From the NCBI GenBank assembly GCA_002428995.1, contig DIYJ01000015.1:125144-189143 (forward strand): a stretch of DNA of 64,000 nt. Direction: 5' to 3'. The notes under the pieces are model-generated. The model saw nothing but the letters and a program-made list of their open reading frames with translations. It searched no databases and was not told the origin of the DNA. Made by a program: the position numbers and the translations under genes. The stretch's first letter is position 1. Each line of letters opens with the position of its first letter. Shown piece after piece: positions 35,380-62,212 of this stretch. The DNA is from Flavobacteriales bacterium UBA6057 (lineage in GTDB: Bacteria; Bacteroidota; Bacteroidia; Flavobacteriales_G; Salibacteraceae).

Positions 35380-35452
<73 letters not shown>

Positions 35453-35458
35453 CTAGGA

Positions 35459-35488
35459 AAAAGCCTTGAAGAAATTCAGGGCTTTTTT
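35459..35488. terminator. Terminator-like hairpin copy 1, directly after the tRNA (AAGCCTTGAAGAAATTCAGGGCTT plus T6, with an A-run before it)
   Basis: Stem-loop with flanking A- and T-tracts. It could terminate in either direction. Confidence 0.6.
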
Positions 35489-35636
35489 ATGCCGGAAACT
35501 TTCAAAAGAAGAGCAGGACGAGATCAACTTCGCAATGCTTCGTTGATTGAGAAAGTTTATGCTGATTGCGCTCAAGCTTCAGCTAAGGAGCAGCGAGTGA
35601 AGCATGAACGAATCGAAGTAAGTCTTGCCCCGCGAC

Positions 35637-35669
35637 TAAAAAAAGCCCTGAGAAACCTCAGGGCTTTTT
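35637..35669. terminator. Terminator-like hairpin copy 2 (AAGCCCTGAGAAACCTCAGGGCTT); terminator for the RHS gene on the minus strand
   Basis: Near-duplicate of copy 1, about 180 nt away. A6 before and T4-5 after it. On the minus strand it follows the stop at 35759 by about 90 nt and has T7. Confidence 0.6.
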
Positions 35670-35758
35670 ATGCTCGGTATTGTAGAAAGGGTAAAGATCT
35701 GCCTGTACTAGAAGTGCGCTCGGGGGTGAATTATCGCCCCCGAGCGGTTGGCCATGGA

Positions 35759-38700
35759 TCAATAAGATCCATCTTCTTGCACAGGACCTGAAATGCCTTC
35801 TGGTCTGCCACCTGGGTCAGCCATAGGGGGATGCCAATCGTCATTTTCTGTTCCGCCTGCTTCGGTATGCGCTGATTCAGAACGGTTCGATATATCATTG
35901 AGCATGCGCTGCATCAGAGCCTCAACCGTGAAAGACGGTGTTTGCAAAGAGAGACCGGGCATCTCAAAGTCAACATCTATTGTCAAACTACGAGGCAATC
36001 CTCCAATATTACTTTGACCCATCCCGGAAAGGTTACCAACCGAATAGCTTCCGTTCAGTTCAGTACCGAAAATTCCGGGCCGCGTGAAATTTGGTCCCAA
36101 AGACGAAGCCCCTAATCCTTTCTTTAGCGGAGTCTTGTACTTGGTTTTTTGTGTAACAGGTTGTACCAGTGTGTGCTGTTGCCCCGGATAAAGTCCAAAT
36201 CCTTTAGGAGTTTTTATAGGTGTCGTGGGTGGTACGTAGCCCTTTGAATCTTGCTTGAACTGCTTCATCACCGCCTTATTCTCTCGGGACTCAGCCTTAT
36301 CTACAAATGACTTCCATGTATTTCCCTCAGTACCAAATTTGTAAGTACCCGAAAAGCTGTACGAGTCGATAGGCCTATCATCCATGCTTTCGTCTTCGAA
36401 TGTCTCTTTGGTTTCGGACTTAAAAGAGAGTTTTTGTTTCGTCTCTCCCGCCAAAAACACAAAGCTTGGATAGACTCTCATGGTTGCCCTTGTTTCCAAG
36501 GTTAATCCACCACCATAGGTTGTGTTAATCCCGGGCCCTTCTTTTGGTTTGCCATACTTCCATGAGAATTTAGTCTCAGCTCCAAAAGTCAAATTGGCTT
36601 GCTCTACTGAAAACCCTCTGCCAACCGTGAGAGTTAATCCTATGCCAGCACCAAGCCATGGCGGAGGATCAAAAGAATGAAAACTGACACCACTTAATCC
36701 TTCTGATTCAACATTGGCGACAGGATTATTATGCGCGAATTGATAAGGGGTAAGCTCCGGGAAATCCGGTGCAGCCGGATCAACCGCAAAAAACCGCGAC
36801 AACCTGGGGTCATGCATTCTGAATGAATAGTTGGCGGAGTTGCCGTCTCCCTTGAACTCATCATCCATTTCTTGCCCATTGATGCCGTACCTGTAATCCT
36901 CCACGGCACCCTTCCGACCCGGCATAGCCATGCCATAAGGATAATAATCCGTGTAGCGCATCACATCGGGCAAGTAGCCTACGGCAACATCTTCGGTAAA
37001 GCTGCCATAGATGTCGCCTGGACCGCTGATGGTGATGCTGCCCAGTGTAAACTTGCCGCCTGGGCTCCCTTGCCCCGCCCAAAAGAGCTTGGTTTTAGTA
37101 GAGGTGGCCGTAAAGGTGTAGCTATAGCTTCCGGTACTAAAGATATCCAGCAAGCCTAGGTTTCCACCTCCGGAGCAGCTCTGTGCGCGGGCTTTTACCA
37201 CTGGCACGGTTTGCTCCAGTATGTCAAAGCTTACCGTATAGGTCTCACCTGTTTCGGTAGCGATGGTGAGAAAGGCCAGGAAGTTGGTGCTGGAAGGATG
37301 TTCCACCGCCAAGTCAGAATTGCCATCGGCATTTACATCAGCAATGGTAGCGGTGGTGGTTCCTACTGGAGATAAAAACCAGGTGCCGGGAGCGTCACAG
37401 CTGCTGTTGGCAATCACAAAATCGCTGTCCAGATCATACTCGTCTGGCACCAGTATTTTACGGTCGGTGATCACCTCCTTTACGTTGCCGAGATGATCGC
37501 CCAACTCGTACATTTTCTCACCAATCATGCGATGGTAGACCACTGGTGCATCAGCTACTCCATATACGTCTCCCGGGCCTGTAATTTTCACATTGCCCAA
37601 GGTGAAGTTGCCCGTGCTGCCCCATCCTCTGAAGTAGACGCGGCTTTGTGTGGCATTTGCGGTGAAGGTGTAGCTATACACTCCTGGGGCTACTACGTTG
37701 AGAGAACCCAAAGAGCTACCTCCAATCCCACAACCGCGTGCCTGGCTGTATACCCATGGCACTGTCTTAGCTACCACTTCGAAGCTTACCGTGTAGGTTT
37801 CTGTTGGAATGGTGTTGAAGGTATGTGCCACTCTGAAGTTGGTGGCCGTTGCATTCATCACCGTTAAGTCCGTGTTGCCGTCCATATCCACATCGCTGAA
37901 TCCGTGGGTGGTGCCTGCGGTTTCGGTCATGTACCAGCTGCCAGGCGCCCCGCACAATGCATCTTCCAGGAAGTCATCAAAGCTGTAGGCATACGAGTCT
38001 TCCGTGATTTCTACGCTGCGCGTATCTAAACCATGGCGCTTGGAGCCATAAATAGTGGCTTCTGTGCGGTGTAGTTCGGGTTGACTCTCGGTCTTTTGAT
38101 AGATGGCCATTGGCACCCCATTGGCGTCCATGCCATACCATGTTTTGTTCCACTGCGCTTCGGGTAGAATATTGCCTCCCATATCGCGCGGCATTTCCAC
38201 CTTTAAGATGCGATTGCCCATCGGGCCGTACTCAAAATAAAGGTCAGGATCTGTGGACAATCCATCGCGCCAAACGCGCTTCAGTTTTCCGTTAGGATAC
38301 CATTCCAGGTAACCGATTCCTTCCTGAAGGTCGCTCTTTAATGCACCGTCACTGTGGTATTGGTAGTTGCCCGGCAATTGCCCATTTTGGATGTCATCAT
38401 AGGCAGTGCCTGCAATGGCGTCCTCCACATAATCCAAGCGGTTATTCGTTTCATAGGGCAACAGCGCATCGTCATAGGTGAACTGATCCATGGCATTGAT
38501 GGTAGCGCCAAAGGTGTAGGCACGCCTGTCAAGCGCGGTGATATTGCCATTCGGATCGTAGTCCACATGCACTTCGTAATCGCCTAACGTGTGGCTACCG
38601 CTGGCGGTCATGTTTTGCCGCGCAGCGTTTACGAACGAGTTCAACTCTGTGATGTCGCTGGCGCTGTGCACATGACTCTCTTTGAAGCGGTGCAACTGGT

Positions 38701-41700
38701 CGTAGCGATAAGCTGTCCCGGTCACGTCAATAGGTAACTCGTCCAGGTCCATCATGGCCGTGGTCACGCCTGCTATGTTGCCGTTGAAGAGCTCGTTCAA
38801 GTCGGTTTTGTAATCACCGGTGGTAGCTGCTAAAAACTGATTCAACGGATCGGTGTCGATGGACTGGTAATCGCCTTCGTAATAGTCCAGCGTAAAGGCC
38901 AGCGCATCCTGTGCCACGGTTGAACTGAGGTGTGAAAGCGAACCGGTGAGCTGGCGACCGTCTTTGCCCATGTCTTTGGTAGGGTCGAGCACTGCGCTGT
39001 TCAGGCCTTTGATCCAGCCTTGCAGGGTGTAGGCATAGTCAGCGCCCTGCACATCCATTTCACCGAGCTCTGTTCGAGCCAGCTTGCCATCGAGTCGGTA
39101 GTTGTACTCCGCATCGCGGTCCCAGATGAAACCGTCTTTCGAGGTGTGTACTTCCTTCAGTCGGTTGTCGGCATCGTAGGTGTAGCGATGGCTGTATTGA
39201 TCGAGCTTACCTTGTTGAAAGTGTGCGTAGTGCGGCAAACCGCTCAACAAGTCATACTCATAATTGCTCTGGAAGAACTGTCGGCCATCGGCCACCAAGT
39301 CTGCGTTTTCTTGCAAGTGTGAACGCACATTTCCGTGCACATCATAGGCATAGTGGTAGAGGTAATCCGGATCTTCCAGAACCCAGCTGGGCACCATGTG
39401 TGTGTAGCCTTCCACAATGGACACAGAGGATACACGATTGCGTATGTCACCCTGCGCTGCTTCACCGAATGCATCCAGTGCGGCCGTGCTGGTTGGATTG
39501 GAGTAATTGACCCGCATGACCTGGTTACGGTAGCGATCTTCCCCAACTGCCGACAATTGGTTGAACCAAGTGGCGAATTGGGAAGGGTCCTTGGCCTTGG
39601 CCTTGGTGAATGGAGTAGGTTGCACAAACTCACCCATTTCAACCGGTCTGCCCAAGTCATCAAATTGAGTGTAGGACCACGCTTGGGTTGCATAACCCGT
39701 ACCCATCGGGTCGCCTGTGATGACGTTATGCGTCAACTCGGCTTGTCGTGCATTTTGGCTCACAATCAATCGGCCCACCTGATCGTACCAAAGTTTGGAG
39801 GAACCACCATCGGGTGTCACCGTTTCAATAGGCTGATTCAGGGCATTGTAATAATGGTAGGTTACAAAACCGTGATTGTTGTAGTGCTCGGATCCGCCAT
39901 CACCATTGCGGTAATCCTGGAGCTCATCAATTTCTGCATCATCCAATGGTTGTACACCTTTTGGTGGAACTGTTTTTACAAGGTTGCCAGCGCGGTCATA
40001 GTACATGAGCGTGTAGTGGTAGCGGTTGGCTAAGTAGTTCATGTTGTAGGTTTCGTCCACACCACGGCATGTCTCGATGTAGTTCGCTATGAATTCCTCT
40101 TTGGCGGTTTCCAGGTAAATGCCATAAGCTGCATCGGCTTCCAGCTCAGCATTCGTGATGAGTGCATCGATGCAGTCATCTTCGATCTCAGGAATGTAGT
40201 TCTCGCACAGCGTGTTCCCGCCAAAAACGTCAAAACAGCGGTTAATGACCAAAACACTAATCTCGATGGGGTCACCACCCTCCGGATCTTCGACTAAAGC
40301 TGTAAGGTGAAAATGTACGGTGAGGGGTGCTGGGCCTGTTGTCAGGTCGGCCGGAGTCAAGTAGATTCCGGTGAATGAAATCACATGTTCGAACACTTCA
40401 TCGATGGGCCAACCTCCAAAACTTTCAGGGGTCAGCACAATGGAGCCTTTCGGGCAGAAGTCACAATCCGTAATTCCGGGAATATCCGTGCCCAACGGAA
40501 AGCTCAGTGCTCCCGTGATCGGGTTGACATAGGGTTCGTAGTAAAAAGGCACGACCTCTTCATCGCAGGTGTGGAACTCACTTTCGAAGTATTCAGGCAA
40601 CGGAGGATAGCCGCTACCATACGTTCCGGTGGTGGTCAAACCATCATCCACCAACCTGTTGAGCAGGACTTTGAAGTCCAGTGCCTCTTCTGAAAAGCCT
40701 TCTGTTATGGTAGCGCCCGCATCCAGCGAATCGCACATTTCCATGAAGGTCATCAGCGAAAAGTAGTCGAAGCCGGTACCGTGGGTTTCATTGACATACG
40801 AAACGAACACCACGGGGTCTTCCTCGATGCTTGCGGTAGGATAGGTGGTGAGGAAGCTCGTGATGGCCGCGTCAAGCTGGTCACAGTCGATGCAACCGTC
40901 ACCGTAGCAACCGTAGTCTGTTACGGTGGTGGTATCTGCAAGTTCGGCCATTTGGAGACCAGTCCATGTGATGCTTCCAGGTGCATACGTAGCCGCCAAA
41001 GGCACTGCAGCTATTTCGGCACAAATCGCACGATCGCGGCAAAAGTTCACAGGTATAAATCCGTACAAGGCTTCAAAGTCATCTTCATCTGAAGCGGCTA
41101 AGAGCTTGTTGCAGGCACAAGTGTCGAGCGCAGGAATGATGGTCACTTCACACACAGGCGAAGGCCGGTCGATGAGGTGGTGTGTACATTCCAGCACCAC
41201 AGGATCTACCAGGTGGTTTTTGATCACTTCCTCAAACGATGATAATTCAACCATGGTCGCCCCATCATCGCACTGACTTGGGAACGGGTAGTCGGCACCA
41301 CAGCCGCCCGTACATACCGTGATCAGATCAGTACGTACAGCATCGTACGTTGCCTGACCGGGTTCCCACGTTTCTCCGAAGGGAAGGAAAGGAACACAGC
41401 CTTCCAATTCAAACATCCAGCCATCGGCCATGGTTTCGCAGGCGCTCTGGCAATAGTCATTGATGTCCGCTTCCACATCCATTTCCAAATCATCCAAAAT
41501 GGTGGGGTCTGTCATCATCTGGATGAGCGGGTAGGGCGCCATTTGATCGTACATCATGAAGCGTTTCGCCCTGGTGGTATAATCCGCACAGCTCACCATA
41601 CATGGTGGTATGACGTTACCGATACACTTTACACAGTCGTTGTAGGTCATGGTACGGCCTTCCATTACCACACCCAGAATGATGTTTCTGCGGGCCAGGT

Positions 41701-44700
41701 AAAGATCTCTGAAGGCAATCCATTGCGCATCCAGATCGCAGGTGCTGGTACCAAAGGTGGAACCATCCGAAAGTGCGGAAGCCATTTCGTAGAGTGTGTT
41801 ACCTCCACTTACTCCGAGCATGTATTGGCAAACCTGTTCGTAATCGTTGGATCCAAACCCAGCATAGCCATCGTCATAGATGTAGTCTTCGTCATCCAAA
41901 ACAGTGCTGAGCGGTCCATTGATCAACGTGACCAATGGATCTTCGTTGGAAGCAATGAACGGATCAGGTGAGCCTGCAAAGCATGCGGGATAATCTCCTG
42001 GGTCAACAGGAGTGATATAGCCAGCAGCTGAAGCTTCGGCATAAGTTTCCGTCAGTTTAAAATCGGTGGCGTAGTCAAAAACTCCTGAGTATAGCTCGCA
42101 GAATCGATAGGTCTCGTATTCAGGGTGCGCGCCTATTAATTCTTCTGCCCACCAGTCTTTCCAGAGCAATGCAAACTGGCTGAGGGGTATGGTCGCGTGA
42201 TTTACACGCACCTCGTCTCCAAAAACGTTGGTAGTCATGGCTTCGGTGACTCCATCTATCTCGTAAAAGATGACATCACGCCAGCTGTAAAGCATAGGAT
42301 CGGCTGAATTGAATACGCTGAGCCCTGAACTTCCGCTGATATCACCGTATTGGCCTCCAGGGCTTACATCGGCCAGCAGTATCGGGCGCATTTGTGTGCA
42401 TAGGGGTTGGTTCTCGCAGTCTTCAAGGTATTCGGTGCGCAAGGTGTTGTATACTGCTTCATTTGTTTCGCCCGTCTCAAGCGAATATTCCTCCCAGGTG
42501 CCATACTCGTAGTAAAAGCTCATTTCACAGGGGCTGCCCTCATAGCAGTCGCTAAAGTCTATCTCCATTAAAGCATCTGCCAGGAAGTTGGAGTAGGGGA
42601 TCAGGCAGTTGGTGTCCGCCAGTTCCACGTATTGATCCCAGTAATACTCGATGGGTTCGTGCATCACGCGGAGTGTTTTCGTCACATAGTATTCTCCAAA
42701 CCGAGGAAACTTGAGGGTGAAGGTGCTGGGGTGATCATCCGAAAAACGAACCGTGTCACCACAAACTGAATCTAGGGGTAGCAACTGACCCACAGTATCA
42801 ATCCAGACTGATTCGATCATGTCAGTGCCATCGCTCAACTGGCACGCATCTGTGAACGCTCCTTCGGTGGGCGTTACCTTGAATTCAATCTCGTAAATAC
42901 AATCGAAGCAAAAGCCTGGAGGCAGGCAGTCGGTAAATTGCTCGGCTGCAAAATCGTAGTTAAACGTGTAGACCTGAGCGGGGTCAGTCACTGCAATCTT
43001 TTGCTCCACAAGCAAGATTCCTTGATCAAGCAATTCGGGGCTATCGCTGGTGAAATCGACAAGGTTGGTATGAATGGGAGTTTCGGGGCCATTGCCTTCA
43101 ATCGCTTCTAAACCAGCCGGAGCTGATCCTTCGAGGTAGCTGATGACGGTGCGTCCCATGTTGTCCAGGATGGTTACGCTCACCTGGCCGTGCACATCTT
43201 TGGTGATGACGCGTGTGTAATTCACATAGTCTGCGGCTTCCGAGCCGATGAAGCGGTCTACCTCATCTGGATCTTGTTGAGCTTCGATGATCACTTCAGT
43301 ATAATGTCCCGCAGGATCGAGCTGATGATCAGGACCAACACCGCCTGAACGTCTTACTCTTCCAGTGGGGTCGTTGGTATAGTGAACCTGTGCGAAATTG
43401 AATCCTTCTGATTCGGGTACAAAGGCCTCAACTCCTTCTTGATTGGGGTTTTGGTGGCTGTAGTACTTGGCGGAACCCATAGAGTGTTCTGAACTCATCG
43501 GTAATGCGGCCTTTGGGCCACAGTCACCGAGCATGGCTTCATCTGAATGGAAGACGTGCTTATCGTATTGAGTATCATGGTCCAACATGTTCAGGTTCTC
43601 GATATACCCGAGGTTGGTTTCGCCTACCGGACTACCCATCACACCGATGGCCGGTCGGCCGTAGAAATCGTAGAGGGCTGAACCCACAATGAGTTCATCC
43701 TGGCTGCTGAGTTGCGATACGCTCTGACGCGGCTTCATGGTGCCATCTACATAGGTAATGCTGGTGTTTCGCTTCCCTTCTTCCACAAAGGCCATGGAAG
43801 CGCTGTAGCTCATGTTGTTGTCTTCGTGTGGGGTGACGGTGATTTTGCACGTGCCACAGTAGTCGTTTACTACACCATTGTCCACATACCCCCAGGCTCC
43901 ATTGGTGTTCCAGAGTCCATCGATGTCATGGTCAATGAAATCGGGAATGCGACCCACACCGCGATAGCGAACCAGCAGGTATCCATCGCCATAGATCATA
44001 GGGATGCGGTATTCATTGCCGGTTACGCGAACACGAGAGGCGTTGTTCTCAAAGTCGTAATTCACGGCTGTTTCTGTCGCTACTACCGGGTCGCCTGCAA
44101 CTTCCTCGCCCGTGTAACCATTCACCCAGGTCCACTCCAGGTCGTATTGATCGGCTCCATCGAGCGATGGCCAGGTCACAATCCAATTGCTGGTGCCGAT
44201 CTCCTCGGCAATGGTCATCGCATCCGATGGAATCACGTTGTAGGCAAAAGCATCGAAGTATTCTGTTTGGATGGATGCATGCAGAAAAAGGTTTTCGCGG
44301 TCGACCGCCACCGGGGTGTAGGTCACTCCACCATCGCTGGATTTATGCAATTCAATATCCCTTAAATCCATGCTGAGGGCGCCATTGAAGGTGTAAACCT
44401 GCCGGTCCTGATAGGCCATATCTGGCGCATAATCCACAAAGAGTTCAATGCCGGAGGTCGTGTTCGATACCAGTATGCCGCCCTCTATTTCATCCCAATC
44501 GAGCGTAAACACGATTTTGTAGTGAAACTCAGGGTCGATGAGGTGCATGGTCTCATCAATACCAAAGGTGATTTCGTTGGTGATTTGGGTAAACCCAAAG
44601 TCAGACTCCCATCCTGGAAGGATGTCTGGATGCTTGCTGGAAGCTACACTGAGGTCCAGCGTAAGATCCAACCCGGTATTGCTTGCTTCTTGGGTTTCTG

Positions 44701-44785
44701 TGGTAGCGTAAGCAGCGAACTGGCAAACCAATAACGCTAGGATAAACGCGATTTTTTTCATCGGAGTTTTCATGATGTTCTGCAT
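35759..44785 (-). CDS. Giant secreted YD/RHS-repeat protein (3008 aa): RHS repeat-associated core followed by a 311-aa C-terminal domain of unknown function; polymorphic-toxin/TcC-like architecture
   Basis: Sec signal peptide (MKKIAFILALLVCQFAAYA). Many YD repeats (YDRAGNLVKTV, YDQVGRLIVSQN, YTYDADNRLKEVH...). RHS core YYPYGM...RMHDPRLSRFFAVDP...NNPVANVESEGL. C-terminal tail 35762-36694. Confidence 0.9.
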   Translation of the reverse strand: MQNIMKTPMKKIAFILALLVCQFAAYATTETQEASNTGLDLTLDLSVASSKHPDILPGWESDFGFTQITNEITFGIDETMHLIDPEFHYKIVFTLDWDEIEGGILVSNTTSGIELFVDYAPDMAYQDRQVYTFNGALSMDLRDIELHKSSDGGVTYTPVAVDRENLFLHASIQTEYFDAFAYNVIPSDAMTIAEEIGTSNWIVTWPSLDGADQYDLEWTWVNGYTGEEVAGDPVVATETAVNYDFENNASRVRVTGNEYRIPMIYGDGYLLVRYRGVGRIPDFIDHDIDGLWNTNGAWGYVDNGVVNDYCGTCKITVTPHEDNNMSYSASMAFVEEGKRNTSITYVDGTMKPRQSVSQLSSQDELIVGSALYDFYGRPAIGVMGSPVGETNLGYIENLNMLDHDTQYDKHVFHSDEAMLGDCGPKAALPMSSEHSMGSAKYYSHQNPNQEGVEAFVPESEGFNFAQVHYTNDPTGRVRRSGGVGPDHQLDPAGHYTEVIIEAQQDPDEVDRFIGSEAADYVNYTRVITKDVHGQVSVTILDNMGRTVISYLEGSAPAGLEAIEGNGPETPIHTNLVDFTSDSPELLDQGILLVEQKIAVTDPAQVYTFNYDFAAEQFTDCLPPGFCFDCIYEIEFKVTPTEGAFTDACQLSDGTDMIESVWIDTVGQLLPLDSVCGDTVRFSDDHPSTFTLKFPRFGEYYVTKTLRVMHEPIEYYWDQYVELADTNCLIPYSNFLADALMEIDFSDCYEGSPCEMSFYYEYGTWEEYSLETGETNEAVYNTLRTEYLEDCENQPLCTQMRPILLADVSPGGQYGDISGSSGLSVFNSADPMLYSWRDVIFYEIDGVTEAMTTNVFGDEVRVNHATIPLSQFALLWKDWWAEELIGAHPEYETYRFCELYSGVFDYATDFKLTETYAEASAAGYITPVDPGDYPACFAGSPDPFIASNEDPLVTLINGPLSTVLDDEDYIYDDGYAGFGSNDYEQVCQYMLGVSGGNTLYEMASALSDGSTFGTSTCDLDAQWIAFRDLYLARRNIILGVVMEGRTMTYNDCVKCIGNVIPPCMVSCADYTTRAKRFMMYDQMAPYPLIQMMTDPTILDDLEMDVEADINDYCQSACETMADGWMFELEGCVPFLPFGETWEPGQATYDAVRTDLITVCTGGCGADYPFPSQCDDGATMVELSSFEEVIKNHLVDPVVLECTHHLIDRPSPVCEVTIIPALDTCACNKLLAASDEDDFEALYGFIPVNFCRDRAICAEIAAVPLAATYAPGSITWTGLQMAELADTTTVTDYGCYGDGCIDCDQLDAAITSFLTTYPTASIEEDPVVFVSYVNETHGTGFDYFSLMTFMEMCDSLDAGATITEGFSEEALDFKVLLNRLVDDGLTTTGTYGSGYPPLPEYFESEFHTCDEEVVPFYYEPYVNPITGALSFPLGTDIPGITDCDFCPKGSIVLTPESFGGWPIDEVFEHVISFTGIYLTPADLTTGPAPLTVHFHLTALVEDPEGGDPIEISVLVINRCFDVFGGNTLCENYIPEIEDDCIDALITNAELEADAAYGIYLETAKEEFIANYIETCRGVDETYNMNYLANRYHYTLMYYDRAGNLVKTVPPKGVQPLDDAEIDELQDYRNGDGGSEHYNNHGFVTYHYYNALNQPIETVTPDGGSSKLWYDQVGRLIVSQNARQAELTHNVITGDPMGTGYATQAWSYTQFDDLGRPVEMGEFVQPTPFTKAKAKDPSQFATWFNQLSAVGEDRYRNQVMRVNYSNPTSTAALDAFGEAAQGDIRNRVSSVSIVEGYTHMVPSWVLEDPDYLYHYAYDVHGNVRSHLQENADLVADGRQFFQSNYEYDLLSGLPHYAHFQQGKLDQYSHRYTYDADNRLKEVHTSKDGFIWDRDAEYNYRLDGKLARTELGEMDVQGADYAYTLQGWIKGLNSAVLDPTKDMGKDGRQLTGSLSHLSSTVAQDALAFTLDYYEGDYQSIDTDPLNQFLAATTGDYKTDLNELFNGNIAGVTTAMMDLDELPIDVTGTAYRYDQLHRFKESHVHSASDITELNSFVNAARQNMTASGSHTLGDYEVHVDYDPNGNITALDRRAYTFGATINAMDQFTYDDALLPYETNNRLDYVEDAIAGTAYDDIQNGQLPGNYQYHSDGALKSDLQEGIGYLEWYPNGKLKRVWRDGLSTDPDLYFEYGPMGNRILKVEMPRDMGGNILPEAQWNKTWYGMDANGVPMAIYQKTESQPELHRTEATIYGSKRHGLDTRSVEITEDSYAYSFDDFLEDALCGAPGSWYMTETAGTTHGFSDVDMDGNTDLTVMNATATNFRVAHTFNTIPTETYTVSFEVVAKTVPWVYSQARGCGIGGSSLGSLNVVAPGVYSYTFTANATQSRVYFRGWGSTGNFTLGNVKITGPGDVYGVADAPVVYHRMIGEKMYELGDHLGNVKEVITDRKILVPDEYDLDSDFVIANSSCDAPGTWFLSPVGTTTATIADVNADGNSDLAVEHPSSTNFLAFLTIATETGETYTVSFDILEQTVPVVKARAQSCSGGGNLGLLDIFSTGSYSYTFTATSTKTKLFWAGQGSPGGKFTLGSITISGPGDIYGSFTEDVAVGYLPDVMRYTDYYPYGMAMPGRKGAVEDYRYGINGQEMDDEFKGDGNSANYSFRMHDPRLSRFFAVDPAAPDFPELTPYQFAHNNPVANVESEGLSGVSFHSFDPPPWLGAGIGLTLTVGRGFSVEQANLTFGAETKFSWKYGKPKEGPGINTTYGGGLTLETRATMRVYPSFVFLAGETKQKLSFKSETKETFEDESMDDRPIDSYSFSGTYKFGTEGNTWKSFVDKAESRENKAVMKQFKQDSKGYVPPTTPIKTPKGFGLYPGQQHTLVQPVTQKTKYKTPLKKGLGASSLGPNFTRPGIFGTELNGSYSVGNLSGMGQSNIGGLPRSLTIDVDFEMPGLSLQTPSFTVEALMQRMLNDISNRSESAHTEAGGTENDDWHPPMADPGGRPEGISGPVQEDGSY

Positions 44786-55022: not shown

Positions 55023-56771
55023 ATGAGCCGAAGGCTGATTTTCCCGTTTCTATCATTTTGTTTCCTGGTGAATCTTGCTGTTACCGCACAGGAATCTGAA
55101 GTGCTGATGCTCGAAGCAACCATTGTTGACTTTGAGACGAGCGAGCCGCTGCCTTACGTCACGGTTTACAACCTTGGGAATGGAACGGGAACGGTCTCTA
55201 ACAACGAAGGCTTTTTCAGGCTTGCGGGCGTTTCAACCGAGGATACGGTTCGTTTCTCCTTTGTAGGCTACACCACCCTGAAGCTTTCCGGCAGTGAACT
55301 TCAGAGGAGCAATCGGACACTGAAATTGGAACGAAAGCCTGCCATGCTCTCAGAGTTTACGCTGCTGGGAGATTGGTCGGTACTGTACAAGCTCATCCAG
55401 CGTGCGCGCAAAGCGCAGACCTATCGCAAGCAAAGCGCCAAGACTTACTTCTCGCTGGAATCGTTTGCGAATGATCAGCGGGTAGAGCTTTTAGAGTGTT
55501 ACTACAACGGTCATTTTGCGGGTTATGACATTCAGAAACTGGAGTTGAAAAACGGCCGCATTGCGCTGGCAGAGTTTGGCAATCGCTTTTTCGTGTCTAC
55601 CGAGAGTTCTAAGGCGATCTACTCTCACGAACTGTTTGGGGACAATCCTTACTTCCCTGCAAGTCCCTTCCAGTTAACCAAAGGCCGCCTGAAAAAAGAC
55701 TACGACCTGCGCTTGCTGAGCAAGTACAAGGACGAACAGGATAACCTAATTTTTGTCATCGATTTCACACCGCGGGACTCTACGGATGATCTGTTTAGCG
55801 GCCAGGTTTGGATCGATTCGCTGACTGCGGATATCTACAAGGTGAACCTTCAAAAACGCAGTGCGAAGAATCATCCGTTTCTACCTATGGGTAATGTGAA
55901 GCGACTGGATCGCATTGATCTGGACATCACCAAGAACTTCAAACCCGCGGACAAAGGGATGATCTTTGAATCGGTGAATTTCGACTACAGTGTGCATTAC
56001 ACGACCAACAAAAGCGAAAAGCTTGTGACAGATACACGCGCGGTACTCATAGGATACAACTCTGAAGAGCTCTTTCGCCTACCCCAATTTGATTTTATCG
56101 ATGCTCGCTACGGTGATTATGTGAAGATCAATGCGGCACCGTACAATGCCTTTTTCTGGGAGAATATGAATGAGTTTGCGGACGACAGTCGTGCAGAGAA
56201 GAATCAGCTCTTCTTACCCGGGAATTCGGCACTTACCGATCGTGACATGTTTGGAGACAATGAATTCTTTGTGGGTGGTGTTCTGCAGCAACCTTATGTC
56301 CATTGGAATGGGGATCCTGTTTTTTTGGCGGGTGGCGGGGCGATCAAAACACCTCGGGAAGAATGGCAGGGAACGCTGCCTTCTGAGCGCTATGCGTTGA
56401 CGGTGAAGTACTACCTGGATATCAATAGCTTTGATAATGAACTCCATTTCCTTTCGGCCAATGTGTTGGATCCGTTTGAGACTTACTACGACTACAAGAT
56501 GAATCCGGTGGATCACATGTTTGTCAACATGTATTTCGACCTTTTTGAAATCCACTACCGTGAAATGGTGAAGGCTCTGGAGCGCTGCGATTGTGACGAA
56601 AGCCGCATGGAAGAGATCTTTGACGAATACACCGAAAAAGCGAAAGAGCAAGGCAAGCTCTTCAGGTATGAGGTGAACCGCGGAAAGAATTGGGGGCAGA
56701 TGGAAAAGTGGGATCGTCACATTTTTGATGTGTTGCAGATTAGCAACATCGAGCGATTTCAAGGAAAATAG
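55023..56771 (+). CDS. Secreted protein with N-terminal carboxypeptidase-regulatory-like (CarbopepD_reg) beta-sandwich domain; function unknown
   Basis: Signal peptide. EATIVDFETSEPLPYVTVYNLGNGTGTVSNNEGFFRLAG matches the carboxypeptidase-like regulatory fold. No catalytic motifs seen in the rest. Confidence 0.55.
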   Translation: MSRRLIFPFLSFCFLVNLAVTAQESEVLMLEATIVDFETSEPLPYVTVYNLGNGTGTVSNNEGFFRLAGVSTEDTVRFSFVGYTTLKLSGSELQRSNRTLKLERKPAMLSEFTLLGDWSVLYKLIQRARKAQTYRKQSAKTYFSLESFANDQRVELLECYYNGHFAGYDIQKLELKNGRIALAEFGNRFFVSTESSKAIYSHELFGDNPYFPASPFQLTKGRLKKDYDLRLLSKYKDEQDNLIFVIDFTPRDSTDDLFSGQVWIDSLTADIYKVNLQKRSAKNHPFLPMGNVKRLDRIDLDITKNFKPADKGMIFESVNFDYSVHYTTNKSEKLVTDTRAVLIGYNSEELFRLPQFDFIDARYGDYVKINAAPYNAFFWENMNEFADDSRAEKNQLFLPGNSALTDRDMFGDNEFFVGGVLQQPYVHWNGDPVFLAGGGAIKTPREEWQGTLPSERYALTVKYYLDINSFDNELHFLSANVLDPFETYYDYKMNPVDHMFVNMYFDLFEIHYREMVKALERCDCDESRMEEIFDEYTEKAKEQGKLFRYEVNRGKNWGQMEKWDRHIFDVLQISNIERFQGK

Positions 56772-56958
56772 TCTCATTGCATATCCAGCGTGATACGGGA
56801 AAGGCGAGTGAGATAGAGTCGACCTCCACACATACATCTCATTTCTTATCTGTATCAAGGTTTAGAGTCACCTGGATCAATGAAGATGCATGAATGTGGA
56901 GTGCAAATAACTATTGAGCTTGGGCGCTAGCTCGATGCTGGAAAGTGTTTTGCGTAGC

Positions 56959-57957
56959 TTATTCTGCAGTTGCCGTAAAAACAGAACTGCCTATAAGTAA
57001 GTTGGGATTAATCTGTGGGTCTGATGCTATGCAAAGGAAGGACTCGACTCTAATGATACAGTCTCGCTTGTACCAACCTGTGAGATCCGAAGATATGTAG
57101 TCAAAGTCCCAAACTGGTTTGTCCTTCAAGTTTGAACATCGCAGCAGGCATAAGCCTTGAAATCCATTTGCCGAACCATCATAGAGTATAGATTCTTCCT
57201 CATGACCTGCGTTAGTATAAGTTGTTTCGGTAATATTCACTCGTATCAAAACCCCATAATGATTAACGTTGGAACCAGACTCAGATACGAGATCAACGAG
57301 CCGGGAACCATATATCCTTATTGGAAGCCGGTTCGCTTTTGGTTTATTCAGAATTTCAATGTCTGCTCTAACTTTGGAGAAACGGTCATTCACGTTTTGA
57401 TTTTCGGAATACAAAATTGCAGGGTCAAACCGAGTGGAATCTTTGTAGTTAATCAGCTTTTTTTTCGCCATGTCCAGCTCTTCTTGCTTAATTCTTAGCT
57501 CGATCCTCAGGCTGTCCGCGATCTTAGCTTGATCAGACGATAGTTCTATCACCTGGCCACCATCCTTCTTTCTTTTGACTCGAAGCTTTTGTCGAACCTT
57601 TTCCAATTCTCTAATGACAGAATCCCGCTGATGATTGGCCTGAATCACCTCTTGCATAAGGACTAGCTTTTCTTTGTAAGATCTAATGGTGTCTTCAGAA
57701 GCTTTGGCCTGAATGACGGTGTTCTCAATTTCCCTTTTTTGAGCCCAGAGACTATCGCTGAGTGCCCTAAACCCATTCGTATCCAGAGCAAGTTGCTGAA
57801 TCATCTCTTCGTTCTGTTGTATTTGGTGCGCGGCAGCCTCTACCTCATCGGTGTATCCATAAATCAATACGGCCGAAACGAGAAAAACCATCAAGACCGC
57901 TCCGGCTACCATTACCGAAACAGAATACGATTTTCGGTATGAATCAATCTCCGTCAT
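56959..57957 (-). CDS. Hypothetical single-pass membrane protein with long coiled-coil and about 170-aa C-terminal globular domain (low-GC module, gene 2)
   Basis: TM at residues about 13-33, heptad-rich region of about 150 aa, C-terminal domain with 4 Cys. Overlaps the upstream gene by 14 nt. Confidence 0.5.
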   Translation of the reverse strand: MTEIDSYRKSYSVSVMVAGAVLMVFLVSAVLIYGYTDEVEAAAHQIQQNEEMIQQLALDTNGFRALSDSLWAQKREIENTVIQAKASEDTIRSYKEKLVLMQEVIQANHQRDSVIRELEKVRQKLRVKRKKDGGQVIELSSDQAKIADSLRIELRIKQEELDMAKKKLINYKDSTRFDPAILYSENQNVNDRFSKVRADIEILNKPKANRLPIRIYGSRLVDLVSESGSNVNHYGVLIRVNITETTYTNAGHEEESILYDGSANGFQGLCLLRCSNLKDKPVWDFDYISSDLTGWYKRDCIIRVESFLCIASDPQINPNLLIGSSVFTATAE

Positions 57958-58516
57958 CTGGGTTGCGTTTGAAGCGCGAGAAAACCTTAGTGTAAAATCC
58001 TTCAGTATGTCTTATTACCAGTGCTTCGGCTTTGCGTAAATCCTTCTTTAGTAACTTCAGCTCGTCTTGGATTTCCTTGTTACGATATGGCAGCTCGGAT
58101 TCGTCACCGACTTTGCATCTCTCAATGATTTGATCAAGTAGCCAGTAGCACTTCAGATATACCCTCAGGTAATAGGTGTTTCGCTTATGTATTGTCCAAA
58201 TGAAGATCAGTACAGATCCGGGTGCGAAAGGCAACAGAGCCTTCGTCTTGGTGTCTATGCTGTTAGTGTTTATTTCCCAAGGAAGTTCAACCATAAGAGA
58301 GAGAAGGTAGCAGGCAATAAATGAAATGCACAAAAAGAGAGGTGAAATCAAGAAGATCCTAAGGGCAGTTCGCATCTTCAACCGTGATCTTATTTCACTA
58401 TTGAATTCAGTTTGACGCTGCGAATAGTGCTTGATGTCAGCCGCCCAAAAACCTGGACTGGAATCAGGTTTGGTGGTTTCTGTTTGATCAATCTGCAGTT
58501 GTAGGATTTTGCTCAT
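57944..58516 (-). CDS. Hypothetical two-TM membrane protein with charged C-terminal tail (low-GC module, gene 1)
   Basis: 190 aa. Two hydrophobic helices (residues about 50-75 and 95-112). Lys/Glu-rich C-terminal segment. Confidence 0.5.
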   Translation of the reverse strand: MSKILQLQIDQTETTKPDSSPGFWAADIKHYSQRQTEFNSEIRSRLKMRTALRIFLISPLFLCISFIACYLLSLMVELPWEINTNSIDTKTKALLPFAPGSVLIFIWTIHKRNTYYLRVYLKCYWLLDQIIERCKVGDESELPYRNKEIQDELKLLKKDLRKAEALVIRHTEGFYTKVFSRFKRNPDDGD

Positions 58517-58640
58517 TTAATTAACACCAAGTTGTTCAAAAATAACAATTAAGTATAGATATAAAATACTTAAAACGTTAGTTTTTAATGTGTCGGAATT
58601 CAAATGAGTAAGCAGTCATATATGGCCGCTATTCCCATAT

Positions 58641-59234
58641 TTGGTCATGATCTATGAATTTGAGGGCTATAAACCTGTCATCCACGAGAGCGCTTTCATC
58701 CATCCGCAGGCGGCTGTCACTGGGAATGTATTCATTGGGAAAAACGTTTACATCGGCCCTGGAGCAGCTATTCGCGGTGACTGGGGAAAGATTGTGATCG
58801 AAGACGGTTGTAATGTGCAGGAGAATTGCACCATCCATATGTTTCCCGGTGTTGAAATACGCCTGCATGAAGGGGCGCATGTGGGACATGGAGCCATTGT
58901 TCATGGTGCCACGCTCGGCCGCAATTGCCTGATTGGGATGAATGCTGTGTTGATGGATGAGGTGGTGATCGGAGATGAGTGCATCGTGGGTGCTCTCTGT
59001 TTTGTACCGGCCAAAACACAAATCCCTCCTCGCAAGGTGGTGGTCGGGAATCCTGCCAAGATTGTAAAGGACGTGAGCGATGACATGATTCAGTGGAAGA
59101 CCAAGGGCACAGAGCTCTATCAGAAATTGCCTTCTGATTGCTACGCTACACTGCGGGAGTGCGAACCCTTGAGAGAGGTTGAACCCAACCGGCCTGAACA
59201 GCAAAAAATCTACGACCTATGGAAAAATCAGTAG
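58641..59234 (+). CDS. Gamma-carbonic anhydrase / hexapeptide-repeat (PaaY/CaiE-like) protein
   Basis: Left-handed beta-helix hexapeptide repeats and metal-ligand His pattern (HMFPG...HGAIVHGA). Confidence 0.8.
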   Translation: MVMIYEFEGYKPVIHESAFIHPQAAVTGNVFIGKNVYIGPGAAIRGDWGKIVIEDGCNVQENCTIHMFPGVEIRLHEGAHVGHGAIVHGATLGRNCLIGMNAVLMDEVVIGDECIVGALCFVPAKTQIPPRKVVVGNPAKIVKDVSDDMIQWKTKGTELYQKLPSDCYATLRECEPLREVEPNRPEQQKIYDLWKNQ

Positions 59235-59605
59235 TCCTCGCCCTTGCCCTTTTGTGCCTTTGTGTGGCAGGAGTGAGCCAGGAGAAAGAAGCGCCACGCG
59301 AGTTTGAAATGACCGAGGGCGACACTACGTATACCATGAAGCAGTATGTCTTCTGCCTCTACCTGAGTGGTGACAATCGCTCACAGTCTGAAGAAGAAGC
59401 GCAGGCTTTGCAGGCACAGCACATGAATCATATGAATTCCATGGCTGAAGAAAAGGGCTTGATCGTAGCTGGACCTTTTGGTGATGAATCCGAAAAGCGA
59501 GGCATTCTGGTCTTTGATGTGGCTACTACGGAAGAGGCAGAAGAAGCAATCAGTTCGGATCCTGCTGTGAAGGCCGGGCGATTGACCTATGAGTGTCACC
59601 CCTAG
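59219..59605 (+). CDS. YciI-like (Dabb fold) protein with signal peptide
   Basis: YVFCLYLSGDNRSQSEEEAQALQAQHMNHMNSMAEEKGLIVAGPF...DPAVKAGRLTYECHP matches the YciI family pattern. Confidence 0.6.
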   Translation: MEKSVVLALALLCLCVAGVSQEKEAPREFEMTEGDTTYTMKQYVFCLYLSGDNRSQSEEEAQALQAQHMNHMNSMAEEKGLIVAGPFGDESEKRGILVFDVATTEEAEEAISSDPAVKAGRLTYECHP

Positions 59606-61834: not shown

Positions 61835-62212
61835 ATGACGGAGAACGAGATTTCTTATAAGATCATTGGTGCTTCTATTGAGTTGCATAAGGCGCTTGGG
61901 CCGGGATTACTGGAAAGTGTATATGAGGAGTCTTTAGCACTGGATTTGCGTGCCTCAGGTCTGAAGGTAAAGCAGCAGGTTTCAGTTCCCATGAGTTACA
62001 AGTCTTTGAATTTTGAACGTGGTTTTCGGTTGGATTTGCTAGTAGAGGACATGGTGATCATTGAAATCAAATCGGTTCAGGCTATACTCCCGGTACATAA
62101 GTCTCAACTACTAACCTATTTGCGTTTGTCTGATCGAAGACTGGGCCTTCTTATCAATTTCAACTCGAAAGTCTTGAAAGAGAGTATTCATCGTATTGCC
62201 AACGGACTTTAA
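61835..62212 (+). CDS. GxxExxY protein (PD-(D/E)XK-like small protein)
   Basis: GPGLLESVYEE motif plus the EIK/Q core typical of this family. Confidence 0.75.
   Translation: MTENEISYKIIGASIELHKALGPGLLESVYEESLALDLRASGLKVKQQVSVPMSYKSLNFERGFRLDLLVEDMVIIEIKSVQAILPVHKSQLLTYLRLSDRRLGLLINFNSKVLKESIHRIANGL

Follow-up and report, generated by a model that had tools for sequence, protein, structure and literature searches.

Introduction

Several described systems come close to the locus analysed here. Kiwa is a two-gene operon that starts with the gene for a small membrane protein, KwaA, and whose second product, KwaB (DUF4868), is soluble. Toxin tips and immunity genes are typically orphan and AT-rich. 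ORFans as a rule fall short of conserved genes in length and exceed them in AT content (PMC3514957). We compared with these systems two minus-strand genes, here called A and B, that lie within a 64-kb stretch of Flavobacteriales DNA (the whole stretch analysed, hereafter the window). A and B are an ordinary orphan gene pair, clean and well-bounded; a set of about 15 billion predicted proteins contains no relative of either. As it stands, the pair exemplifies the usual background of lineage-specific genes that are rich in AT, and opens no long-standing question. If functional, A and B would each found a new protein family, and Flavobacteriales would possibly gain a new accessory module associated with the envelope. 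The analysis also provides a correction useful for later work: what varies is a unit of 23 kb anchored on tRNA-Met, rather than one of 1.9 kb.

Results

An overlapping gene pair with a candidate promoter

The ATG of B lies inside the final codons of A, in the +1 frame relative to A, giving a tidy overlap of the ATG/TGA type (Table 1). The open reading frames and an independent public gene set, in which both genes are called identically, agree with the initial annotation, which had placed 190-aa and 332-aa genes with a 14-nt overlap on the minus strand. Such an overlap is operon-like and compatible with translational coupling, and A and B probably make up a co-transcribed, translationally coupled two-gene operon. 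Arithmetic from the base composition puts the chance of a 332-codon open frame at ~1e-9 per start. When scored against host codon usage, the annotated frame was the top scorer among six for both A and B, as was also seen for a genuine PDDEXK_3 gene with comparable GC. The codon score itself was marginally positive (0.02-0.05 bits per codon), and the synonymous-codon score fell inside the range of host genes. GC2 was the lowest of the codon positions in both genes, with GC1 > GC3 > GC2 in B. A and B are almost certainly real genes that are read in the annotated frame. No paralogues of either were found elsewhere in the 64-kb window.

The initial annotation had also pointed to an AT-rich promoter region upstream of A, and the low GC of this divergent intergenic region, together with a -7-type motif, is in line with that suggestion. 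The -7 element of Bacteroidetes sigma-A promoters has the consensus TAnnTTTG. Sites matching this consensus are depleted in the 64-kb window (10 sites compared with 29.4 ± 5.0 expected) and lie mostly just upstream of gene starts. We regard the match upstream of A, TATTTTTG, as the putative promoter of the A-B operon. A scan for the sigma-70 consensus, which is uninformative for this phylum, gave 3 sites with 4.1 expected. Downstream of B, in the 187-bp gap shared with a convergent gene encoding a 582-aa protein, there is a weak terminator-like hairpin, a type for which 4 sites were found and 1.5 ± 1.4 were expected in the region. Rfam searches of 50-64 kb found nothing. On the other side of the pair, the public gene call gives a paaY product of 195 aa and the alignment with relatives starts exactly at the ATG listed in Table 1, which is probably the true paaY start.

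Table 1. Features of the A/B locus and its surroundings, numbered from the first nucleotide of the window
Feature	Position	Strand	Remarks
tRNA-Met (CAT)	35380-35453	+	left anchor of variable region
Lineage-specific stretch, tRNA-Met to paaY	35454-58646	.	23.2 kb; from synteny and domain matches
Rhs-type toxin gene	35759-44785	-	DUF6443 and RHS-associated core; C-terminal domain at 35762-36718
2055-aa gene	44798-50965	-	
Hybrid TPR/His-kinase/AraC regulator	51272-54970	+	
CarboxypepD_reg protein	55023-56771	+	outer-membrane-type
Weak terminator-like hairpin	56916-56933	-	26 nt downstream of B stop; 5-bp stem, 8-nt loop; consensus match only
Gene B	56959-57957	-	332 aa; ORF
A/B overlap	57944-57957	-	14 nt, ATGACGGAGATTGA; sequence read directly
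Gene A	57944-58516	-	190 aa; ORF
AT-rich divergent intergenic region, A to paaY	58517-58646	.	27.4% GC over 58517-58640
-7-type motif, TATTTTTG	58537-58544	-	putative promoter element; matches TAnnTTTG; 21 nt upstream of A ATG
paaY-like hexapeptide transferase gene	58647-59234	+	right anchor; 76-82% identical to copies of four closest relatives

A lineage-specific region between tRNA-Met and paaY

In the four closest relatives, tRNA-Met is located 66-131 bp upstream of paaY, compared with 23.2 kb here. The paaY and paaZ genes of these relatives are 76-90% identical and the site corresponding to A/B is empty. Likewise, A and B were absent from all of the related paaZ loci compared (80/80). The two genes, which form the paaY-proximal end of the 23.2-kb region, are thus very probably lineage-specific accessory genes, as first proposed. 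The initial annotation had however described a 1.9-kb two-gene insert, while the unit missing from the relatives is the entire 23.2 kb, and nothing sets A/B apart as an insertion of its own, no direct repeats flanking the pair. In two of the four closest relatives, tRNA-Met and paaY are abutted by homologues of the genes found at 26.4-34.4 kb of the window.

As in a tRNA-linked island, the region lies between a tRNA and the gene that usually flanks this tRNA in relatives. Neither an integrase or recombinase nor a distal repeat of the tRNA 3´ end accompanies it; no integrase-like ORF was detected among ORFs of at least 120 aa in 35-59 kb, nor was a transposase, and the tRNA region is not repeated in 50.9-59 kb. 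The only repeat found, a degenerate one, is local (~35627-35670, about 190 bp from the tRNA). Over most of the 23 kb, GC resembles that of the host. The presence of an Rhs polymorphic-toxin gene in the same variable region means that conflict genes do occur in the neighbourhood. The C-terminal tip of this gene is AT-richer (46.1% versus 51.4% GC), and there is no space for an immunity gene between its stop codon and the tRNA. We also considered a functional link between A/B and the neighbouring 582-aa protein and rejected it, given that three homologues of this protein have no A/B-like pair alongside.

Base composition of the pair

The segment comprising A and B (56790-58640) has 42.0% GC, compared with 49.4% for the whole window, and is the GC minimum of the window; only 2 of 1243 sliding windows of 1851 bp (SD 2.0%) were equally low or lower. 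Both A (42.8% GC) and B (42.9%) fall below the mean of the genes in the window (49.4%, SD 2.5). The same was true for GC3 (0.476 for A and 0.438 for B versus a gene mean of 0.561, SD 0.058) and for GC3 at fourfold sites (0.39 for A and 0.45 for B versus 0.54-0.63 for neighbours), with the values for the pair being the lowest in the window among genes of >130 aa. The synonymous sites of A and B are atypically AT-rich. Composition is accordingly not uniform, in agreement with the low GC originally noted. The reported contrast of ~43% to ~52% applies to the right flank, which contains paaY and paaZ and has 50-53% GC, but is overstated for the left flank (47-48%).

The deviant GC and GC3 are as expected for horizontally acquired genes. 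In contrast, the dinucleotide signature of the segment was ordinary (delta* 57 versus a window mean of 64, SD 24; rank 128/249), though this measure has low power at 1.85 kb, and the codon usage of A and B was only mildly atypical. Given the ordinary signature and the mildly atypical codon usage, a foreign origin is not proven; we lean slightly towards it. The low GC3 would equally result if selection were weak on a native gene that is young or evolves fast.

Searches for homologues and families

Word-indexed searches of 5.8 billion protein clusters recovered only A itself with A and only B itself with B, and no conserved core gene emerged as a homologue of either. An exhaustive HMMER search of 1.84 billion representatives was carried out with residues 172-332 of B, the C-terminal domain, as the sole query because coiled-coil matches would flood the listing. 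This search also returned only B, without even weak matches. At 1.8e9 targets, E = 1e-3 requires roughly 45 bits or more; with an identity of about 25%, a 161-aa domain could therefore escape detection. By these searches A and B are orphans with no detectable homologue. The conserved proteins of the genome that were looked up are all singletons at 90% identity, and this lack of close relatives in any collection means that the orphan status partly reflects sampling. A scan of the GTDB representative set with the neighbouring 582-aa protein gave no match, which places the source genome itself outside that set.

The family collections gave a similar picture. For A, there were no Pfam families at E <= 1, SLATT included. 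For B, only GMPPB_C, DUF7261 and NusG_II appeared in Pfam, all sub-threshold (E 0.03-0.7), and no match was found in Pfam, NCBIfam or the PDB to TolA/TonB or to the C-terminal or barrel domains of HlyD-type adaptors. NCBIfam had no significant family for either protein, and none at all for B. The PHROGs matches (E = 0.018 at best) were all to families of 'unknown function' and covered coiled-coil or TM stretches. PDB sequence searches with A and B gave E values of at least 0.049, with a best value of 0.063 for B. Both genes were absent from phage and plasmid collections searched by tblastn as well as from viral and metagenome contigs scanned by pattern and tblastn. Residues 267-326 of B weakly resemble left-handed beta-helix proteins (GMPPB_C in Pfam, E = 0.03; 7d72 in the PDB, E = 0.063); this lead was rejected, as comparison with the neighbouring beta-helix protein PaaY gave E = 2.4.

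Predicted architecture of the two proteins

A and B are predicted to be inner-membrane proteins. Protein A starts with ~52 aa of N-terminal sequence. A TM hairpin follows, in which the first hydrophobic segment (~53-76) is strong and the second (93-110; 17 aa, mean hydropathy ~1.9) weaker, and the C-terminus is a helical tail of 80 aa rich in charge (18 K/R, 14 D/E). Single-sequence AlphaFold modelling gave helices at 21-76, 95-135 and 143-180 (mean pLDDT 51.6). Since K/R-rich segments flank the hydrophobic stretches, the hairpin is predicted to have both termini, including the charged helical tail, in the cytoplasm.

Protein B begins with a 12-aa N-terminal tail and a single strong hydrophobic segment (13-35), features expected of a type II bitopic protein. 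In the AlphaFold model (single sequence, mean pLDDT 45), residues ~36-170 form long helices that constitute a helical or coiled-coil stalk of ~135 aa (pLDDT 64-86 over 90-170), and the C-terminal domain of ~160 aa (172-332) is beta-rich at 214-330, with low confidence (pLDDT <45) in this part. B has four cysteines (270, 274, 300 and 309), and the cysteines of the two proteins are confined to the predicted periplasmic head and to TM segments or the tail. The stalk would be long enough for about 10-20 nm, so that the beta-rich head with its cysteines could reach through the periplasm in the direction of the cell wall or outer membrane. These predictions agree with the architectures initially read from the sequence, namely two TM segments and a charged tail for A, and an N-terminal TM segment, a coiled coil and a Cys-containing C-terminal domain for B.

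Discussion

The best explanation overall, which we hold tentatively and with somewhat less than even confidence, is that A and B are a lineage-only operon in a variable region encoding an envelope-spanning inner-membrane complex with an accessory, conflict-type role. Such a complex is proposed as the function from predicted topology and architecture only. The two proteins would be made in a fixed ratio and assemble as one complex that spans the envelope. The periplasmic head of B could bind an envelope or incoming component, with the hairpin and cytoplasmic tail of A acting as a membrane-embedded partner, effector or relay. The role would be accessory and conflict-type (exclusion or immunity) rather than housekeeping. 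The individual parts of this model differ in strength. That A and B form a membrane complex is slightly favoured, while a conflict or exclusion role is rather unlikely.

The operon could instead be an anti-phage defence, abortive-infection or superinfection-exclusion pair, with B sensing phage at the envelope and the A hairpin depolarising or permeabilising the membrane. A compact, overlapping, AT-rich orphan operon encoding two membrane proteins within a variable region fits such a role, as does the two-TM hairpin of A, which with its flanking helices we take to resemble known 2TM effector proteins. However, the PADLOC matches were at noise. The sole match of A was to CARF_TM over the TM stretch (E = 0.016, 12.7 bits), and the best match of B, to JetC (E = 6e-5, 19.4 bits), was confined to the coiled coils of B and JetC, B being without an SMC ATPase head; taken component by component, PADLOC-DB v2 gave no significant match for A or B. 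Nine neighbouring genes matched only generic TPR, kinase and receiver domains and no defence family, and the surroundings (paa catabolic genes, a hybrid kinase, an outer-membrane-type protein and the Rhs locus) are not those of a defence island, for which no co-occurrence statistic could be drawn up given the lack of homologues. With the PHROGs, phage, plasmid and viral searches also empty, the defence and abortive-infection candidates of the initial annotation now appear unlikely, and its toxin candidate gained no positive evidence from the same collections. One form of the latter would tie A and B to the Rhs locus as a toxin/immunity or bacteriocin-type pair, with B as an exported toxin or receptor-binding part and A as the membrane immunity protein. 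The shared 23-kb region, the absence of immunity-gene space next to the Rhs stop codon, the AT-richer Rhs tip and the orphan, AT-rich character that we take to be usual for such genes speak for this pairing. Yet A and B are 12 kb upstream of the Rhs gene, beyond two plus-strand genes, instead of downstream of the toxin tip where an immunity gene is normally found, and B is dissimilar to the giant proteins and has no trafficking domain (Rhs, PAAR or T9SS C-terminal sorting domain), making the assignment quite improbable. Still less probable is a remnant of a prophage lysis cassette. Here A, with its TM hairpin and charged C-terminal tail, would presumably be holin-like, and B, with its N-terminal anchor, periplasmic coiled coil and Cys, i-spanin-like; we take these architectures to resemble class II holins and Rz-type i-spanins. 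No holin or spanin family was matched in PHROGs, though, and there was no endolysin or other phage gene in 35-64 kb, no muramidase or amidase domain among the neighbours, and no lipobox ORF of at least 30 aa, as expected for an o-spanin, in any minus-strand frame of 56700-58640. Moreover, at 190 aa for A and 332 aa for B the proteins have about double the usual sizes, and B has an additional 160-aa head domain.

Alternatively, A and B could be a native rather than a horizontally acquired pair of fast-evolving envelope proteins, consisting of a TolA-like tether with anchor, helical stalk and globular head and a small membrane partner, whose relatives have diverged beyond detection and whose low GC3 reflects weak selection. 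The host-typical dinucleotide signature, the fit of the annotated frame to host codon usage with a synonymous-codon score in the host range, and the lack of mobility genes and repeats are all compatible with this history. In addition, the adjacent 582-aa protein is only 42-44% identical to its best homologue, which suggests that envelope proteins evolve fast in this lineage. We nonetheless find a native pair unlikely: A and B have the lowest GC and GC3 of the genes in the window, the site is empty in four relatives despite the high identity of their paaY and paaZ genes, the exhaustive profile-free HMMER scan with the C-terminal domain of B lacked even weak matches, and the contexts of the 582-aa homologues contain no analogous pair. 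A and B might also be non-functional, as decaying or spurious frames in AT-rich spacer DNA. Evidence from conservation is absent because there are no homologues, and the codon score is barely positive. Against this, open frames of 190 and 332 codons are very improbable by chance at 42% GC, the annotated frame is the best of six as for the PDDEXK_3 gene, the ATG/TGA overlap is tidy with a promoter motif at the expected distance, and the architecture is coherent (positive-inside TM flanks, long amphipathic helices and Cys placement); non-functional frames are thus highly unlikely.

Returning to the envelope-spanning complex of our preferred reading, a more ambitious version would make A and B the founders of an unrecognised conflict system in which the stalked periplasmic head senses phage attachment or a competitor toxin and the 2TM partner excludes or immunises, overlooked so far because the family is limited to a poorly sampled Flavobacteriales lineage. 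We consider this version improbable.

Among known systems, B is predicted to resemble TolA and the i-spanin Rz in being anchored at its N-terminus, in its long helical stalk in the periplasm and in the cysteines of its C-terminal part. B differs in having no family match in Pfam, NCBIfam or PHROGs, sequence searches show no relation between its 160-aa head and TolA domain III, and the pair has no TolQ/TolR-like or o-spanin partner. SLATT-type 2TM and CARF-TM effectors are comparable to A as small proteins with a TM hairpin and flanking cytoplasmic helices. The Pfam SLATT family was nonetheless not matched at E <= 1, the CARF_TM match was at noise level, and there is no gene for a nucleotide sensor or cyclase partner nearby. 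We take Kiwa to be similar in its gene sizes and in having a small membrane protein first, but no Kiwa family was found in PADLOC at E <= 1, and B is a membrane-anchored coiled coil whereas KwaB is soluble. Finally, A and B resemble the AT-rich ORFans of tRNA-linked variable regions (genomic islets): they are present in one lineage only, they have the lowest GC and GC3 of their neighbourhood, and the stretch carrying them splits a tRNA from its usual neighbour and has conflict genes (Rhs) alongside. The stretch differs in having no integrase, no distal repeat of the tRNA 3´ end and a bulk GC that is host-like. Known ORFans are, as are A and B, short and AT-rich (PMC3514957).

Genes A and B form an AT-rich operon beside paaY

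The two minus-strand genes next to paaY, here called A and B, share 14 nt (ATGACGGAGATTGA), and this overlap suggests translational coupling. The same gene calls are present in the public collection. A codon-usage score trained on 20 supported genes in the window, and taken relative to the base composition of the scored segment, ranked the annotated frame top of six for both A (+0.049 bits per codon; runner-up -0.39) and B (+0.021; runner-up -0.24). These scores are below those of paaY and the 582-aa gene to the left of B (0.21-0.29) and on par with that of a bona fide, similarly AT-rich PDDEXK_3 gene (0.021). The start of A is well defined given an in-frame TAA immediately 5´ of its ATG, and a weak hairpin is found 3´ of the B stop codon. 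We conclude that A and B are a real two-gene operon.

TAnnTTTG is the consensus for the -7 element of Bacteroidetes promoters, and a matching sequence, TATTTTTG, lies 21 nt 5´ of the A start codon. This motif is about three-fold depleted across the window (10 sites, 29.4 ± 5.0 expected), which fits selection against spurious promoters, and most of the surviving sites are directly 5´ of gene starts or of a tRNA. Depletion and placement together make TATTTTTG credible as a putative promoter for A. The divergent intergenic region shared with paaY also carries a palindrome, AGCAGTCATATATGGCCGCT (core CATATATG), 17 nt 5´ of the paaY ATG, that may be an operator of the paa genes.

The initial annotation described a low-GC overlapping pair, and sliding-window GC agrees: 56790-58640 is the lowest of all 1851-bp windows (42.0% GC versus 49.4% for the window; SD 2.0%; 2 of 1243 equal or lower). 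The reported contrast of 43 versus 52% holds for the right flank with the paa genes (50-53%) but is overstated for the left (47-48%). GC is 42.8% for A and 42.9% for B (gene mean 49.4%, SD 2.5), GC3 is 0.476 and 0.438 (comparison 0.561, SD 0.058), and fourfold-site GC3 is 0.39 and 0.45 (0.54-0.63 in eight neighbors). As the shift is seen at synonymous sites, the Lys/Ile/Asn-rich composition of the proteins is not the sole explanation. The intergenic region 58517-58640 has 27.4% GC, and the A/B dinucleotide signature is ordinary (delta* 57 versus 64 ± 24). The only other gene equally AT-rich is the PDDEXK_3 gene (PD-(D/E)XK nuclease superfamily; 42.1% GC, fourfold GC3 0.36). It occupies the same position in L002 (69% identity), one of the four closest related loci (L002-L005), and has no match in the other three, making it a second small variable gene near paa.

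Features of the tRNA-Met to paaY region (window positions unless a related locus is named)
Feature	Position	Strand	Product or remark
tRNA-Met	35380-35453	+	followed by terminator hairpin
Variable stretch	35454-58646		
Repeated segment, tRNA-Met 3´ end	~35441-35489		
Degenerate copy of this segment	~35627-35670		
Rhs-type toxin gene	35759-44785	-	3008 aa
2055-aa gene	44798-50965	-	no family match
Hybrid regulator gene			TPR/His-kinase/receiver/AraC
CarboxypepD_reg protein gene	55023-56771	+	582 aa
B	56959-57957	-	332 aa
A	57944-58516	-	190 aa
Palindrome	58611-58630		candidate operator
paaY start	58647		
YCII-family gene	59219-59605	+	
PDDEXK_3 gene	61835-62212	+	
TAnnTTTG sites	3936, 12613, 16889, 20344, 35222, 35308, 51634, 56426, 57369, 58537		
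tRNA-Met, L002	8239-8312	-	
tRNA-Met, L003	8228-8301	-	
tRNA-Met, L004	8570-8645	-	
tRNA-Met, L005	8608-8681	+	

The unit absent from relatives spans 23.2 kb

The best matches of paaZ (87-90% identity) are from Cryomorphaceae and uncultured Flavobacteriales MAGs, placing the source in the Flavobacteriales. A and B are encoded in 0 of 80 related loci, and L002-L005 lack the entire stretch between tRNA-Met and paaY; the description of the pair as accessory and lineage-specific is upheld. In these four loci paaY is preceded, at a distance of 66-131 bp, by tRNA-Met(CAT), and in L004 and L005 homologues of the genes at 26.4-34.4 kb of the window run straight up to it. Here tRNA-Met and paaY are 23.2 kb apart, so that what the relatives lack is ten times larger than the "two-gene insert" initially proposed; no feature delimiting A and B as a separate insertion was found around the pair, which occupies the paaY-proximal end. 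The giant genes of the stretch have 50.7-50.8% GC and its bulk is host-like, so A and B are conspicuous even inside it.

A canonical integrative island was rejected for the stretch, in which neither an integrase nor a tRNA 3´-end repeat at the far boundary was found. The tRNA 3´ end and terminator recur only locally, as a degenerate copy about 190 bp 3´ of tRNA-Met that looks like an att-type scar of earlier integration or excision. The orientation of tRNA-Met in L005 is inverted relative to L002-L004, and the genes 5´ of it differ (an 810-aa gene directly upstream in L002 and L003, an additional four-gene block in L004 and L005); this suggests that rearrangements have recurred at the tRNA-Met/paaY junction in this family. 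Between paaY and paaZ, a YCII-family gene overlaps paaY by 16 nt; its N-terminus resembles a signal peptide. Of the related loci, just L002 and L003 carry this gene.

By its domains, the 3008-aa ORF is an Rhs-type polymorphic toxin gene, with DUF6443 at aa 329-408, an RHS-associated core at residues 2614-2697 and a variable tip of ~310 aa that has no family match and is lower in GC (46.1% versus 51.4%). The co-directional 2055-aa ORF precedes it. The interval between the stop of the Rhs gene (35759) and tRNA-Met (35453) is too short to hold an immunity gene in the conventional downstream position.

A and B are orphan, predicted membrane proteins

A word-indexed search of 5.8 billion clusters returned only self-matches for A and B, as did an exhaustive HMMER scan of 1.84 billion representatives for the B head domain. 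Matches in Pfam, NCBIfam, PHROGs, PADLOC and PDB sequences were all sub-threshold, on coiled-coil or TM stretches. The top one, JetC (19.4 bits), covers the coiled coil only and was treated as compositional because B has no ATPase head. A left-handed beta-helix likeness of B is faint (E 0.03-0.06) and does not extend to the neighboring beta-helix protein PaaY. No match was found by tblastn of phages and plasmids or in scans of viral and metagenomic contigs, and there are no paralogues within the window. E-value thresholds at such library sizes mask relatives of roughly 25% identity. Each conserved protein checked from the source genome was a singleton at 90% identity and the genome is outside the GTDB representative set, indicating a poorly sampled lineage.

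Hydropathy, charge and predicted helices matched the architecture initially assigned to both proteins. A has two hydrophobic segments, a strong one at ~53-76 and a weaker one of 17 residues at 93-110 with a mean hydropathy of about 1.9. K/R-rich sequence stands before the first and after the second, so that by the positive-inside rule both termini are predicted to be cytoplasmic. The protein ends in a helical, strongly charged stretch of 80 residues (18 K/R, 14 D/E). In B, a tail of 12 residues precedes the hydrophobic anchor, which spans 23 residues (13-35). Long helices, with a break at KRKKDGG, then extend to ~residue 170 (pLDDT 64-86 over 90-170). The remaining 160 residues, with four Cys, were modelled at low confidence as a beta-rich domain. 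B is likely N-in, with stalk and head periplasmic.

The "defence or toxin" suggestion of the initial annotation found no footing: the pair has no PADLOC matches, no defence genes among its nine neighbors and no phage or plasmid connection. We consider an accessory role, probably of conflict type, only tentatively, and an envelope-spanning conflict module that has escaped recognition is improbable. That A and B are simply a fast-evolving native envelope pair is unlikely. They might be linked to the Rhs locus, although their position, 12 kb 5´ of the Rhs gene and past two oppositely oriented genes, argues against this. A link to the 582-aa gene was rejected, as three of its homologues lack A/B-like neighbors, and so was a lysis cassette (no endolysin, o-spanin ORF or PHROG matches). 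Orphan genes of high AT content are a familiar phenomenon in tRNA-linked variable regions (PMC3514957); A and B would be new protein families in an ordinary kind of gene pair.

Architecture and gene overlap are most economically read as pointing to one inner-membrane complex that would span the periplasm, formed by A, a small hairpin facing the cytoplasm, and B, stalked and periplasmic. It is in this reach across the periplasm that the proposed complex would resemble TolA and the i-spanins.
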